DNA from: Ignavibacteriota bacterium | Lineage (GTDB): Bacteria > Bacteroidota > Ignavibacteria > UBA10030 > UBA6906 | Assembly (NCBI GenBank): GCA_963811705.1 | Contig: CAWESL010000003.1 | Coordinates: 57,448-121,447 of the forward strand | DNA: 64,000 bases | Direction: 5' to 3' | Shown: positions 45,001 through 60,000 of the stretch, one piece after another | How positions within the stretch are numbered: the stretch's first letter is position 1 | How the letters are laid out: every line of letters starts with the position of its first letter | Program-made: the position numbers

Positions 45001-48000
45001 CGGCCTCTGCGTCTGCCTCGTGGGCAATGCCGCTCGTATCGTGGTAGAGATAGTCTCCGTCTCCGTGCACCACGCACACGATGGAGTATGGCGTCCCGAG
45101 GTTTGCCTCCACCCCCTGTTCAGCGTCACGCTGAACAGGGAGTTCGGCGCTGCACGACGGCAGCATAGTCATGAGGGCTGCACAACACATGCTTGCCAAC
45201 AACGTTGAGCAGAATCTGCCCCTGACCGGTCGGAAGACCGGCACAGCGCGCTCACAAACCAATTATCTCACCAAAAGGACGAGTAAGATTGCGAGTAAGA
45301 TGAGGGTGACGAGACTGACAGTGACAATCGTGTCCGCCTGCTCCATATCCTGCACGGCATAATTGGAGAACGCATTGAGCTGCTCATCGGGGACACGCGT
45401 GTAGCCATTGCGGCCTGCGAGCTCATCTTGTTTGTCTTGAATCGTAGCTTTCAGCCGATCAATCGCGGCCCGATCGGTTGTCGAGATTGACGGCGACCCT
45501 TGAACCACGTCCAGAGCTTTTTCCATGGTCTGGAACGATTCGTTCAGGATCTGTCGCTTCTCAGACGGATTGTCCGTCGCCCTGACTTTGGTCGCCGCAG
45601 TGTTGAAGTATCCTTGAAGTCCGTCTTTTCCGCCGGCGGTCGCCGGGAGCGCCAAGACGCACAGGAGCGCGATGGATCCAAAAACCATTCGTGTTGTCAT
45701 TGATGCCTCTTCGTGGAGATGGTAGGTGATTGACGACGCATGATACCGGCCCATTAAAGACCGAACATGAGACCGACGGTGATGACGTAAAAATTGTTGC
45801 TTACGCCATTGCTCCCCGGAAACGCCGAGTGCGTCAGACAGTCTGAGACGTTAGGCTACTCCGCCCATCACCCAGATGCCATCGGCGTCAATGGTTGACT
45901 GCTCGCCGCAAATGTCTCTTGCCTTCACTGCCTCACGTCCGGATGAAAGCGCGGGCGTCGGCGACACGCGCAATCTACCATGATGCCGACACAAGAGAAT
46001 CGTCCAAAGGAACGAAAGCGTGGTTAATCATTCCTGCCGCGGCTCTGCGTCGAACGATGGGGATTCCGATTCGCATATCCGCTTGGATCTTTTCGATCTC
46101 CACCCTGCCTGTCGTGAAACGCTCGCCGGCTCCGCGGCCGACAATCGCCCGGGCGTCCAATCACCGAATCCCTGTTCCGCCCCTTCACCCGGGGAACTCC
46201 CCCTTCGCTGTTTCAAATCTCCCTCCATGCGATTACAGAGCATCCTGTAATGGCTTTTTATCCCAACGACGCTGCACTGGCTCAAATATCTTCTTTTCAC
46301 TGGCGTGGAGTGAACCCCACGCCGGAGATCTCCAAGATAGCGGTCAAGAGATCCGGATGAATCAGCCGAAAGGATGAAAGCGTAGCTAATCCCCGACGTC
46401 ATGAATGCGCCAAGGTCCTTGTTTTGTCGAGCCTGACCATTAGGCCGCCGACAACCATCACACCAATGCCGACATACGGCTCCCAAAAGACCTTCTGATC
46501 GCTCTCCTTCGTCAACGCGTAGGAACCGAAGTCCACAAGACTCTCCCTCGTTATGTAGTTAAAACCGGTGTACACGGTCATCATCAAACCCACGATGACC
46601 ATGGCCAGTCCAATTGTTGATTTCATGTCGATCCCTTCCTCGCTTGTGTATGCGCCCTCAGTCCCGGTCGCTCATGCTGAGCCAACGGAAGTATACCGGA
46701 CAAGGTTATGTGATGAATCGGCTGAACGGACGAAAGAATAGCTAATCCCCGAATACGGGGGGCTGGTGCTCCAGGGGGGATCAAACCACGAACAGCAATA
46801 CGGCGAAAGGCGAGTTACATCTCGAGGCGGGGAAGGAAGGTCACTCGATGTCGGTCTTGTACGATTGTGTTGCGATCTCCAGGCGGCTATGCAGGGCCAT
46901 CTTTTCCAGGATGTTATGGATATGGCTTTTCACGGTGTAGGGCGAGAGGTTCAACTGCTGGGCAATTCTCTTGTTGCTCATCCCTTCGGCGATAAGAACG
47001 ATGATCTCACGCTCACGCACAGTCATACGGACAGCATTGGGCAGCGACCCTTTTCCCTTGCGGAGGGCGATGTCAACAACATGGGTAAACAGAGACTCCG
47101 TCAGCAACGGGGGAAGAACTCTCACCCCTAGAGCGACCGACCGGATCGTATTGAGGACATCCTTGACTGTCGCATCTTTGAGCACAAAGCCCGACGCACC
47201 CGCTTGGACAAACTCAACAATATCCCGCTGGGAGGGGATCAGACCCATCCCGATGATGCGAACCTGAGGCATTTCCTTCGTCATCGTCGCCACAACGTTC
47301 AGGCCGTTCTCGTTCCGCAAACCCAGGTCAATGAGAACGACCTGAGGTTTTAATCTCTGCGCGTGTACCAGGGTGTCGTGATTGCCCTCGAATGCGCCCA
47401 CAACTTTGAGATCCTCCTGCTTGTTGAGGAGGACTTTGATGCCTTCGCGCAATAACCGGTTGTCCTCGATGAGCAGAATCTTAATCTTCCGCATACACGG
47501 GTAGTTCCATTGTCAGAAGGCGGGGGCGGGACGAATACAACCAGGTTGAATATACGATGTTTCGTGAAATCTTACAATGATCCTGTCACATTGCGAGCAA
47601 TCGCCTCTGGATCCTACAATCGAAAAGGCGGCGTTCTGCTCTTCGCATCTCGTCAGTCGAACCGCAAGGATTTCGCCACGGCTTCGATCACTTTCTGATC
47701 ATCGCTGGCAACACTGGCCCGATGCGCTTCTTCGGCTGCCTGTTCCCGGGCATATTCCGTGAATGCGGTATTCGTTGCGTCGACCGCCTCTTTCAAAGCC
47801 GGGAGGTGTGTCGAAGCGACGTCCTGAATCGGACATTGGATGACGAGGCACATTCCATCAATTTCCACCCCTTCTGTCGAGCCGAGATCTCTCCATTCTC
47901 GCCTGAAGATCTGATTCCAGGAGAGCGGCGGGTTCGCGGAAAGATCGAAGTACACCTGATAAGCGGTATACGATCCGCGCGCCCTCCTTGTCTTGCCGGT

Positions 48001-57000: not shown

Positions 57001-60000
57001 CGGCGCGTCGGTTCCGATCGTCCAGGAAGTAGGCATGTTCCCACTCGTCGATCATCAGAATCGGTCTCATGCCAGAAGTCAGCGGCACATTCGCGCTGCA
57101 GGTTTTGACCACCTTGAGGTTGTCGCCGCCCAGGTACCTGACAATACGACAGAGAGCTGCGGACTCAGAAGACTGAGGACTGGGTTCGACATCACCCGCC
57201 GGTTTCCGTAACGGTTATTCCCGATAACACCAGCCGTCTGAGGATCTTGTTCCATGTTTTTTCGCGCACGGATTTTTTCGGAAGCAAACGACCCAGAGGC
57301 GCTGCTGCCGCAGTAGCCCGCTGCACACCATAATCGAGGTGCTCAAAATCGAGATAATCGTCGCCATCCAAGAGATGCGATTTCGTCTCAACCGTTGAAA
57401 TGCTCCCGATCTCACCGTCGGAAAGCAGTTTCATTATATTGTCTCGAATTACGTACTCGTCCCGTTTGTCGTCCATCGTTTTTGTCATTGCAGGTTTCCG
57501 TTGGAATGTGGATGAACCCGGGCGTGGAGGAAACTCCCTCCGAATCCCTTGGGCCGCAATCATAGTAAACGGGAAATACCACGAAAATGAATCGCCCAAA
57601 CGGGTGAAGAAGTAGCTAACCCCCGGGACGTGAGTGCTCGCCGGCAGCCGGGTTGGCATGTCGGTTATGTTCGGGGTTCCTCCTTCCGGATCTCCCGCTC
57701 CGCCGACTCCCAGTCCTGATCTGCTCGGCCGTCCTGACGGCCTCGCCGTTCGTAGAGTTCGTACGCGCGTCTGGCGATCTGCGGGTTCACATCGGACGGT
57801 TTCCTGGCCACGGCGATCGGAATGCGCGGCTTGATCATTCCGACCTTCACCGCCTCATTCACGCCGAGACACGCGACAACGGAATAGGCAAGAATGGCAA
57901 GGGTCTGCAACCAGGGCAGCGGGAGGAGTCCCGGAAGACCCACGTAAGTCAGACCCGTGCCCACCACCGCACCCGCGATGAGCGAGAGCATGAAAGTATT
58001 GCTGGGCTTCGTTGTCCAGAACCAGTTTCGTTCTCTGACAGACACAATGGAGAACACGCAAAAATAGAGCAACGTCAGAAAGCTGAAAGTGCACAGAGCA
58101 TTGCTATCGGCAGCCAAACCAAACCGCGACCAGCCGAACCATAACAACAAGAGCGTTTCCCCCACCATGGCCAAGCCGAGGACCACGGAGACCCGGATGA
58201 ACCCCCCGATTGCCCATGTCTCCGGCTTCCTGGACGGCCGAACGCGGTCGGTGGCCAGGGCGATCGTCGCGAAATCCATCACGAAAACGAGGAGCAGCAT
58301 CGCGAATGCGGAGACGACAAACTTCCCCGTCACCATGAAGGCGATAGCTACAAAGGCCGCCTTCAGGAGCGTCCGGCTGATCTTGTTGATGATCCAGGTC
58401 AGAATCCTCTGGTAGATCGTCCGCCCCTGTTCGACCAGCGCCACGATGTTCGTCAAGCCCGGTTCGGTCAGGACGACGCTGGCAGCCCCCTTGGCCACAT
58501 CGGTGGCGGTGCTGACAGCGATTCCGACTTCGGCCTGGCGGAGGGCGGGAGCATCGTTGACGCCGTCACCGGTCATGCCGGTCACGTGTCCAGCGGCCTG
58601 GAGGTGTTGCACCACGATATACTTGTCCTCTGGATACACCTCGGCAAAACCATCCGCACCTGCCAACAGATCCACCGCCTCGTTGCCGGCCTGAGCACTC
58701 GCAGCCTTCAGATCCGCCACGCGCCGAATATTGGGCAACCCGACTCCATGCGCGATTTCACTTGCCACCGCAAGCGCATCACCGGTGAGCATCTTCACCG
58801 GAACGCCCAGATCCCGGAGTTCGGCGATGAGCTGTTTCGCATCCGCCCGGGGCGGATCATAGAGTGTCACCAATCCGAGCAGGACGGGGGCGCCCGATTC
58901 GGGGCCGCGCGCCACCGCAAGCGTCCGATAACCCTTCATCGCTGATTCGCTGACCCGCGCCTCCAACGTTTCGATTGCCGGGGGCTGGAGTCCGCATGCC
59001 TCGGCCACTGTCCGCACGGCACCCTTCATCACACGCAGCCGCTGCCCGTTCTGTTCGACGACGGCCTCCGTGCGCCGGTTTTTCGCATCAAAAGGCGCAA
59101 AGGAAACCGGCGCGACTTTCGGAAGGTTGTCGAATATGTGCCGCTCTTTTGCCGCGGCGAGAAATGCCAGGTCAATCGGATCCTGGTTGGCTTCTTGAGA
59201 CGCGAGCGCGCCGGCGAACAGCACGTCGGATTCCACAGCATGATCCAGCGGGATCACGCCGGTGACGGCCAGTTGATTCATGGTGATCGTGCCCGTCTTG
59301 TCCACACAGAGCACGTCCATTGTTGCGGCATCCTCTGCAGCGCTGAGCCGTGTGACGAGCACACCGCGCTTCGCCAGCTCCTTCGAGCCGACGGCCATGC
59401 TGACGGTAAACATGGCGGGAAGGGCGACCGGCACCGCGCTCATCAACAACACGAGGATGAGGGGAACCATCTCCAGGAGCGGCGCGCCGTGAATCAACGA
59501 CAGCACGATCACCACACTCAGCAGCGCGCCGACGATGACGAACAGCCAGCGGACCACCTTGGCCACGACCGCTTCGATGTGGAGTTTGGGTCGCGCCTGC
59601 TGCACCAGCTCGGTGGTGCGGCCAAAATACGTCTTCGCCCCGGTCAGCAAGACCACGCCGTTGCCTTCGCCCCGCCGTACGACAGATCCCGAAGAGAGTA
59701 CTTCGCCCGGACCCTTGTCGGCGTCCTTTGACTCACCGGTGAGCGCCGACTGGTCAACGCTCAAGGCACCGGTCAGAAGCTTGACATCGGCCGGAATGAT
59801 GTCGCCCGGTCGGACCCGAACGATATCGCCCGGAACCAGATCGCGGGAGGGAACGACCTGCCAGGACGCTTCTCGCAGGACACGCGCACTCACCTGCAAC
59901 CGGCGCCGCAGCGTCTCAACAACGCCGGCGGCCCGATGCTCCTGCATAAAACTCAGCACCGCATTGACCACGAGCAGCACGCCCACAACGGCGAAATCCG

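Follow-up and report, generated by a model that had tools for sequence, protein, structure and literature searches.

A 64,000-nt stretch of the genome of an Ignavibacteriota bacterium (contig CAWESL010000003.1 of assembly GCA_963811705.1, positions 57,448 to 121,447; hereafter the window) carries six copies of a conserved element upstream of small envelope and stress-type genes, which raises the question of what the element does and which protein reads it. To our knowledge, the classical general-stress sigma factors (sigma-S, sigma-B and EcfG) are not known in the Bacteroidota/Ignavibacteriota group, and how its members coordinate stress and dormancy is largely unknown. The original prediction for this locus took the copies for a shared promoter architecture serving a local regulon. 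We propose that the copies form the upstream halves of sigma-70-type promoters that depend on an activator, and that they are read by an orphan NarL/VraR-type response regulator encoded at 46841-47494 within the same gene cluster, and we give this interpretation a probability of about 0.62.

The six copies in the window share a block and a downstream hexamer

All six copies are minus-sense and lie inside 45,995-57,624, at plus-strand positions 45995-46032, 46357-46394, 46713-46750, 52128-52165, 53775-53812 and 57587-57624; they thus agree in number and orientation with the original prediction and start 0-5 nt from where it had placed them. A first position weight matrix (PWM), self-trained in that it was built from these same six copies, scored them at 44-55 bits, against less than 8 bits for the rest of the window and less than 14 bits for shuffled sequences. 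A hidden Markov model (HMM) built mainly from the copies of other genomes returned six matches in a repeat scan of the window, all at E <= 5e-8, with the next best at E = 1.4. The minus-strand pattern common to the copies is GRTTARC-N6-TTCRYYC-N-TTYRR-N-YGATT, and in all six a TAnnnT-type hexamer begins 20-22 nt past GATT.

Two finer features that had been proposed hold for part of the set. The direct repeat TTCATCC-N10-TTCATCC is exact in c46359 and c53777 only (copies are named as in Table 1), and the wider family keeps its second half merely as GATT. The spacing of exactly 18 nt between GATTCA and a hexamer is found in three copies (TATACT in two, TATCTT in one). A fourth, c45997, keeps the 18 nt, but GATTCT precedes its TAGATT, and c57589 has 18 nt to TTTACT with an alternative, TACTAT, two nt further. 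In c52130 the distance is 19 nt, after GATTGG, and the hexamer reads TATCCT, not GTATCC.

The element is distributed across a deep clade

Species-representative genomes of GTDB were scanned with an exact degenerate pattern of 15 fixed and 8 two-fold positions. It matched more than 113 stretches in at least 66 assemblies, where about 4 matches would be expected by chance in 596 Gb, both strands, as estimated from information content. Loci retrieved through the motif or through the regulator are labelled with L-numbers below. Among the matches listed, nearly all are metagenome-assembled genomes (MAGs) labelled Ignavibacteriae, Ignavibacteriota, Ignavibacteria or Bacteroidota; three loci belong to Candidatus Delongbacteria, and single matches are labelled Acidobacteriota and Synechococcus, the latter possibly a case of bin contamination. 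The closest genome among them is the Ignavibacteriota MAG MFD01872.bin.1.283 (L058, L062, L064), whose proteins are mostly 82-93% identical to those of the window, with gene order kept. A search with nhmmer added about 45 more divergent copies within the 113 loci listed, and 35 of these loci hold 2-4 copies within 8 kb. The word local therefore has to be dropped from the predicted regulon, the element being found clade-wide: it marks a regulon common to Ignavibacteriota-type bacteria of the Fibrobacteres-Chlorobi-Bacteroidetes (FCB) group and Delongbacteria, and it is unusual in its length and in its near-invariance across so deep a clade. A literature search by sequence string and keyword, incomplete in its coverage, returned no paper that describes the motif, or a regulon of this kind in Ignavibacteria or Bacteroidota.

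Several clustered, intergenic copies per genome are also what would be expected of a dispersed repeat without a regulatory role, akin to repetitive extragenic palindromes (REP) or miniature inverted-repeat transposable elements (MITE). A REP-like repeat scattered through coding regions had been named as the case that would speak against promoters, and just 5 of 152 copies lie inside a long open frame (at least 60 codons upstream and at least 30 downstream of the copy). The block is kept over phylum-level distances while its flanks and spacers diverge, which argues against a recently spread repeat. In addition, the orientation of the copies is tied to the downstream gene, the element has neither terminal inverted repeats nor a hairpin, and the downstream genes are functionally coherent. 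A dispersed repeat is thus scarcely credible.

The copies have the hallmarks of promoters

Several lines of evidence indicate that the copies very probably act as promoters. Among 167 copies from the 66 assemblies listed, TAnnnT begins at idx 52 or 53 of the element, that is, 20-21 nt past GATT, in 155, compared with an estimated chance expectation of about 2% of copies. TATACT is the commonest hexamer (65 copies), followed by TACACT (17) and TACCTT (14), and the place expected for the transcription start site (TSS), idx 64-65, is enriched in purines. A co-oriented open reading frame (ORF) of at least 60 aa starts within 300 nt downstream of 114 of the 129 exact-pattern copies. By a crude gene call, the upstream gene is divergent at 30 copies, so the element is no 3' feature of the upstream gene. 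At L114:6293-6519, two copies stand back to back on opposite strands, one facing a KaiC-like ATPase operon and the other a 275-aa gene. In the window, a terminator hairpin at 52175-52213 ends just before c52130, whose block follows directly after the 10-nt tail of the hairpin; a new transcription unit therefore starts there. Taken together, the fixed distance to the -10 box, the intergenic, co-oriented copies and the stress-like gene set bear out a shared promoter architecture with a long block upstream of a -10 box that serves small envelope and stress genes, as had been predicted.

Very high conservation across 33 nt could alternatively point to a structured RNA (a leader, riboswitch, 3' untranslated region (UTR) or small RNA (sRNA)) transcribed from elsewhere. 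GGAU...AUCC and TTTCAG...CTGAAG complementarity is visible by eye in some copies, and one leader class has a real conserved hairpin further downstream. However, Rfam gave no match at E <= 1 over 44-60 kb of the window, and RNAalifold found no consensus structure on either strand of 166 copies. The mean length of a stem between block and spacer was 3.39, compared with 3.28 when the spacers were taken from random other copies in a permutation. The 30 copies with a divergent upstream gene and the position of c52130 behind a terminator count against an RNA as well, and the fixed -10 box would be left unexplained by it. We therefore consider this reading very unlikely.

The downstream hairpin itself belongs to a conserved leader that stands right after the inferred TSS in about 20 Ignavibacteria copies and has the form TCAGGYTCAAYACGAACGGCTCTCCC-loop-GGGGAACCGAAT (window 53690-53745, minus strand; L115:10810-10870; L041, L090, L114 and others). 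The hairpin is rich in G+C and carries compensatory changes, UCUCC/GGGGA versus UCUUU/GAAGA and GGCUC/GAGCC versus GCCUC/GAGGC. The genes behind it vary and include CsbD, DUF4398 and large proteins, and it could serve mRNA stabilisation or be a site of post-transcriptional control.

The block probably takes the place of a -35 hexamer

The consensus block reads gGGATTA(A/G)CTACTCTTTCATCC(T/C)TT(C/T)(G/A)GN(C/T)GATT and measures about 33-35 bp. Taking the hexamer as -12 to -7, it reaches from about -66 to -34, counted from the inferred TSS, and its 3' end falls at the place expected for a -35 hexamer. The -35 area (idx 32-37) holds little information, and none of the six window promoters is picked up by a scan for the TTGACA/TATAAT consensus. 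They therefore lack a good -35, which fits an activator site that replaces it. The original prediction had left the choice between a dedicated activator and an alternative sigma factor with an extended -35; of the two, an activator working with a housekeeping-type sigma fits better.

Conservation extends to positions that the search pattern leaves free: 120 of 123 copies have G at idx -1, and TACTCT (idx 7-12) is kept at 70-98%. An independent logo of 65 copies, fetched via the regulator gene and not via the pattern, has T3, A4, C19, A29 and T30 invariant and G-1, T12, C15, A16, T21 and G24 near-invariant. Within the block lies an imperfect 21-bp inverted repeat, GGATTAA-N7-TTCATCC, which is complementary at 7 of 10 positions and whose conserved positions mirror each other (-1/19, 3/15 and 4/14). 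LuxR/NarL-family dimers bind inverted repeats of this kind. The remainder of the block, TTYGG-N-CGATT, lies directly against the -35 position. For the 5' pseudo-palindrome, half-site swapping or covariation was also considered, with the GTAGCTAGCTAC and GGAACTAGTTCC variants, and was set aside: these variants are orthologous promoters and represent one or few events, so there are too few independent changes.

A block at -66 to -34 with a partial inverted repeat does not, by itself, distinguish activation from repression, and NarL-family proteins are able to repress. The block might thus be the operator of a repressor, with intrinsically active promoters that are derepressed under stress. However, essentially all copies have a non-consensus -35, a usual trait of promoters that depend on an activator, and the consensus scan picked out none of the six in the window. 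Moreover, the operators of repressors mostly overlap the -10 box or the TSS, whereas here the spacer and start regions are variable. Repression is accordingly improbable.

The -10 box is not uniform. In a promoter subclass (L025, L037, L052, L093, L100, L110, L113 and L115:18388), the spacer is TCTTTGnGGCAAGCTATCC and a TACCTTTC box takes the place of TATACT; this subclass shares its genomes with the TATACT class and might reflect a second sigma specificity. When the Bacteroidetes primary-sigma promoter (-33 TTTG and -7 TAnnTTTG, with TTTG 18-20 nt upstream) is used for comparison, the subclass offers GATTTCTTTG...TACCTTTC, but about 15 nt apart, and most copies have TATACT. Whether the -10 form (TATACT or TAnnTTTG) tracks lineage was considered as a test for the housekeeping sigma and proved uninformative because both forms occur within the same genomes.

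An orphan NarL/VraR-type regulator is the candidate reader

The gene at 46841-47494 encodes a 217-aa protein whose closest solved structures are VraR and NarL (E ~1e-31), DesR, and DevR (E = 1.7e-21); none of the NCBIfam equivalog cut-offs was reached. Its stop codon lies 92 nt upstream of the c46715 block. D11, D56 and K106 are conserved, and motif-anchored orthologues with as little as 49% overall identity all keep the recognition helix TVKSH(V/I)HNILEK unchanged. When the ORF families of the 113 listed motif loci are ranked by recurrence, the orthologue of this regulator is the sole transcription factor in the top 22. It is present in 19 of these loci, from 16 assemblies and with the three Delongbacteria loci included, where a random single-copy gene would be expected in an estimated 0.3 of 113. 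In about 16 of the 19, a co-oriented copy of the element lies 25-100 nt past the regulator stop codon.

The association is also seen from the side of the regulator. On two contigs fetched by the regulator alone, 5-6 copies lie within 20 kb. In a metagenome set of 80 loci anchored on regulators with 52-79% identity to that of the window, 56 have at least one copy within 3 kb, and the commonest neighbour of the regulator is CsbD (27 of 80). When the regulator is at least 63% identical to the window's, a copy lies just downstream in 21 of 24 informative loci, and eight loci with 53-58% identical regulators have a variant copy, AAGAAGTAATTCCTTTTTCATCCCTTTGACCGATTG, 31-130 nt upstream of the regulator gene. 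The arrangement of motif and regulator changes yet their association persists, which argues for a functional link, possibly autoregulation, over frozen synteny. On the strength of enrichment, adjacency and the invariant helix, the chances that this particular regulator reads the block appear about even to us.

The original prediction had put forward two LuxR/NarL regulators of the window as candidates, and this one is backed by the evidence above. The other, at 18902, was rejected: it is the ordinary partner of a HisKA_3 kinase, has a different recognition helix and has no motif near it.

Several observations weigh against our interpretation. With regard to the site, the block is asymmetric and, at about 33 bp, longer than a single NarL-type dimer site; its inverted repeat pairs at only 7 of 10 positions, the left arm being less conserved than the right; and two -10 forms, TATACT and TACCTTT, are found inside single genomes. 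With regard to the regulator, the whole orthologue family has Gly in place of the conserved receiver Thr/Ser after beta-4 (residues 81-87, IGMGLIP, aligned to VraR and NarL), and no adjacent kinase was found beside the regulator in the window or in the 80 regulator-anchored loci. Given the Gly replacement and the lack of a neighbouring kinase, the regulator may be under non-canonical control. The metagenome loci were retrieved by a peptide pattern of the recognition helix, and helix invariance in that set is by construction. Co-localisation could, moreover, be conserved synteny, with the regulator merely a member of the regulon. Finally, genes for extracytoplasmic function (ECF) sigma factors occur in 8 of the 113 listed motif loci and usually end a motif-preceded operon of 163-aa and 393-aa proteins, in the manner of an autoregulated ECF operon.

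This last point leads to the possibility that a dedicated alternative sigma, either an ECF factor or a group 2/3 stress sigma preferring TATACT, recognises the block as an extended element, and that the NarL-type regulator is just a regulon member. TATACT is the -10 form favoured by E. coli sigma-S, and TTAAC and CGATT in the block loosely resemble the AAC and CGT elements of ECF promoters. However, the AAC-to-CG distance is 20 nt, compared with the 16-17 nt typical of ECF promoters, and this spacer is nearly invariant. With a start near idx 38-40, as expected for an ECF promoter, the fixed TAnnnT at idx 52-58 would have no explanation. The 33 bp of the block also exceed the roughly 6-8 bp that sigma region 4 contacts. 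In addition, no sigma gene was found in the window and one was found in the 80 regulator-anchored loci. An alternative sigma as the reader is therefore unlikely. For an ECF factor in particular, we rejected this role on geometry and on weak, inconsistent co-occurrence; because the window has no sigma gene, a single one of 80 loci has one, the 20-nt spacer is nearly invariant and TAnnnT would be unexplained, we take the ECF sigma to be a downstream tier of the regulon.

Examples of the ECF genes that end the 163-aa/393-aa operon are L009:2173-2964, L064:4782-5387 and L115:20133-20654. In L064, an unannotated ORF overlapping the ECF gene could encode an anti-sigma factor. At the matching operon position, the window has a 127-aa ORF, a 238-aa ORF and YeaQ instead of an ECF gene. 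Histidine kinases with PAS domains lie in or directly behind motif copies elsewhere (L054:1791-2822, L011, L027 and L004); they have what looks like an HWE/HisKA_2-type H-box (HRxKN) and would be candidates for the missing sensor.

Proposed mechanism

In the activator model that we favour, the block at about -66 to -34 would stand in for a consensus -35, with the TAnnnT -10 box placed 20-21 nt past GATT. Because the -35 position is off consensus, RNA polymerase probably needs a protein bound at the block. A dimer of the regulator encoded at 46841-47494 would bind the 21-bp inverted repeat GGATTAA-N7-TTCATCC and would make a further contact at TTYGG-N-CGATT, beside sigma region 4. Transcription would then start 6-8 nt past the hexamer and run into the downstream gene. 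The regulon under this control would comprise CsbD, DUF4398/OmpA, OMP barrels, DnaJ, the KaiC-like ATPase, BrkB, DUF3185, DUF5670, YeaQ and the ECF sigma operon. Where transcription starts, whether the block activates or represses, which protein binds it and what induces the regulon are all inferred from the sequences compared here.

More tentatively, and with somewhat less than even confidence, we suggest that Ignavibacteria-type FCB bacteria and Delongbacteria have their master switch for general stress or dormancy in the block together with the Thr-less orphan NarL-family regulator, and that this switch stands above the ECF sigma and the KaiC-like ATPase in a cascade. If so, this would be a response-regulator-based general stress response distinct from sigma-S, sigma-B and EcfG, with a long, near-invariant composite site replacing the -35. 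A sharply defined, searchable 33-bp element with a single candidate regulator makes the question of stress control directly testable. The members of the regulon, many of them uncharacterised small proteins, can be read from uncultured genomes and metatranscriptomes of the soils, peat and wastewater in which these organisms are abundant. Should the assignment of the regulator be wrong, the motif could still be used as bait for the true factor.

Genes behind the element

A Pfam scan of 113 downstream ORFs, 108 from other genomes and 5 from the window, was dominated by CsbD (17 members), DUF4398 (10), OMP beta-barrels (OMP_b-brl, 8), OmpA (6) and Por_Secre_tail (6). Smaller groups were Ice-binding-like proteins (4), DnaJ, Zn-dependent alcohol dehydrogenase and response regulator receiver (3 each), and KaiC-like ATPase, BrkB, DUF3185 and DUF932 (2 each). 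Contexts fetched via the regulator add YtxH, DUF5670, YeaQ/Transgly_assoc, LysE, AI-2E transporters and glycogen phosphorylase. From its gene content, the regulon looks like one of general-stress or dormancy type.

Comparison with known stress regulons

By analogy, the system would function like the DosR/DevR dormancy regulon or the sigma-B, sigma-S and EcfG stress regulons, but it stands outside those promoter families. The likeness to DosR/DevR of Mycobacterium tuberculosis lies in a NarL/LuxR-type response regulator, with DevR itself among the closest solved structures, in a long conserved site just upstream of, and reaching into, the -35 of many promoters, and in a regulon of small stress or dormancy proteins that is partly arranged in islands with the regulator gene inside the cluster. 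However, the Dev box is a 20-bp palindrome, TTSGGGACTWWAGTCCCSAA, whereas the element described here is unrelated, asymmetric, about 33 bp long and far more uniform between promoters. The regulator is also an orphan, without an adjoining DosS/DosT-like kinase and without the receiver Thr/Ser, and both the phylum and the gene set are different.

The alphaproteobacterial sigma-EcfG/NepR/PhyR system (GGAAC-N16-17-CGTT) likewise controls CsbD and small membrane and envelope proteins, and in some genomes putative HWE/HisKA_2 PAS kinases are found among the motif-driven genes and an ECF sigma in the island. In contrast to the EcfG signature, the element has a conserved 20-nt spacer and a separate TAnnnT box, and neither PhyR nor NepR was seen here. 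With sigma-B of Bacillus and sigma-S of E. coli, the element shares an apparent physiological role, and its commonest downstream gene, CsbD, is named for sigma-B control. However, the sigma-B promoter GTTTAA-N12-15-GGGTAT is not found: idx 32-38, which lie 12-15 nt upstream of GGTAT, show the lowest conservation in the element. The block lies upstream of the -35, where sigma-B and sigma-S promoters are not conserved, and no partner-switching genes were seen in the motif loci.

A further parallel is offered by the LuxR/TraR-type lux boxes and the sites of DesR, LiaR and VraR, which belong to the same helix-turn-helix family. These similarly have, ahead of a weak -35, an imperfect inverted repeat of about 20 bp (here GGATTAA-N7-TTCATCC), and the stretch protected by DesR, from -77 to -28, is of comparable length. 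In contrast to such sites, the repeat of the element is centred near -55, not -42.5, and an additional conserved stretch of 12 bp (TTYGGNCGATT) lies between the repeat and the -35. Binding of the regulator to this composite site is a prediction.

Gene organisation in the window

The features of the window are collected in Table 1. All five downstream targets that had been predicted were located, as were the lmo0937-like and YeaQ/GlsB genes; the exception is c46359, which faces no convincing ORF.

Table 1. Features of the element cluster, in window coordinates (TSS, inferred transcription start site)
Feature	Positions	Strand	Remarks
YeaQ/GlsB gene	42497-42748	minus	Further along the gene string behind c45997
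Operon behind c45997	44081-45754	minus	163-aa secreted/membrane-anchored protein (probable start 45700) and 393-aa lipoprotein-like protein
c45997 -10 hexamer TAGATT	45972-45977	minus	TSS ~45965
c45997 conserved block	45998-46032	minus	PWM and HMM
c46359 inferred transcript	46033-46327	minus	No convincing ORF; possible sRNA or small hydrophilic protein
c46359 -10 hexamer TATCTT	46334-46339	minus	TSS ~46327
c46359 conserved block	46360-46394	minus	PWM and HMM
Gene for 75-aa two-helix membrane protein, behind c46715	46399-46626	minus	Family in 14 motif loci
c46715 -10 hexamer TATACT	46690-46695	minus	TSS ~46683
c46715 conserved block	46716-46750	minus	PWM and HMM
Orphan NarL/VraR-family response regulator, 217 aa	46841-47494	minus	REC and GerE/LuxR; candidate activator
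Sigma-70-consensus-like promoter TTGTAA-17-TATATT before regulator gene	47549-47577	minus	Consensus match only
Operon behind c52130	49821-52019	minus	DUF4398 lipoprotein 51642-52019; DUF4398-OmpA 50772-51638; OmpA-family 49821-50729
c52130 -10 hexamer TATCCT	52104-52109	minus	TSS ~52097
c52130 conserved block	52131-52165	minus	PWM and HMM
Intrinsic-terminator-like hairpin and T-run	52175-52213	minus	17 pairs, 11 G-C; ends upstream unit
DUF5670 (lmo0937-like) membrane mini-protein, 49 aa	52246-52395	minus	Probably co-transcribed with DUF932
DUF932/TIGR03299 gene, 365 aa, behind c53777	52446-53543	minus	Family match
c53777 -10 hexamer TATACT	53752-53757	minus	TSS ~53745; leader ~200 nt with class-A-like hairpin
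c53777 conserved block	53778-53812	minus	PWM and HMM
Gene for 98-aa protein, behind c57589	57192-57488	minus	No family match
c57589 -10-like hexamer TTTACT	57564-57569	minus	Alternative TACTAT 57562-57567; TSS ~57555-57557
c57589 conserved block	57590-57624	minus	Minus-sense GGGGGTTAGCTACTTCTTCACCCGTTTGGGCGATT; PWM and HMM

Some of the units behind the copies recur in other genomes. The 98-aa protein has a 72% identical orthologue in L062, also behind the motif, and the hexamer of the L062 promoter orthologous to c57589 is TATACT. The 163-aa and 393-aa families each recur behind the motif in 13-14 loci. The window has no tRNA genes that could be used as reference housekeeping promoters.

The sole ORF candidate in the c46359 transcript is a low-complexity, hydrophilic frame of 62-72 aa over about 300 nt. 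The closest relative, L064, lacks this segment and has a degenerate copy of the motif at the matching place. A DUF932 pseudogene behind c46359 was considered and rejected, as tblastn gave no match and the segment is also not kept in L064. A 45-nt stretch of the c46359 transcript (46200-46244) is 76% identical to one in the 5' UTR of the DUF932 gene (53620-53664), both within motif-driven leaders, and it appears to be non-coding.

Two further observations concern large minus-strand ORFs of the region. Between motif-driven units, 225 nt 3' of the 98-aa gene, two ORFs (53903-55423 and 55408-56967) resemble, judging by their translations alone, glucose-6-phosphate dehydrogenase and 6-phosphogluconate dehydrogenase. 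Their order is also kept in L085 and L033, and they may be part of the same stress island or transcription unit. Just outside the island, a single ORF of 3089 aa extends from 33201 to 42470 on the minus strand.

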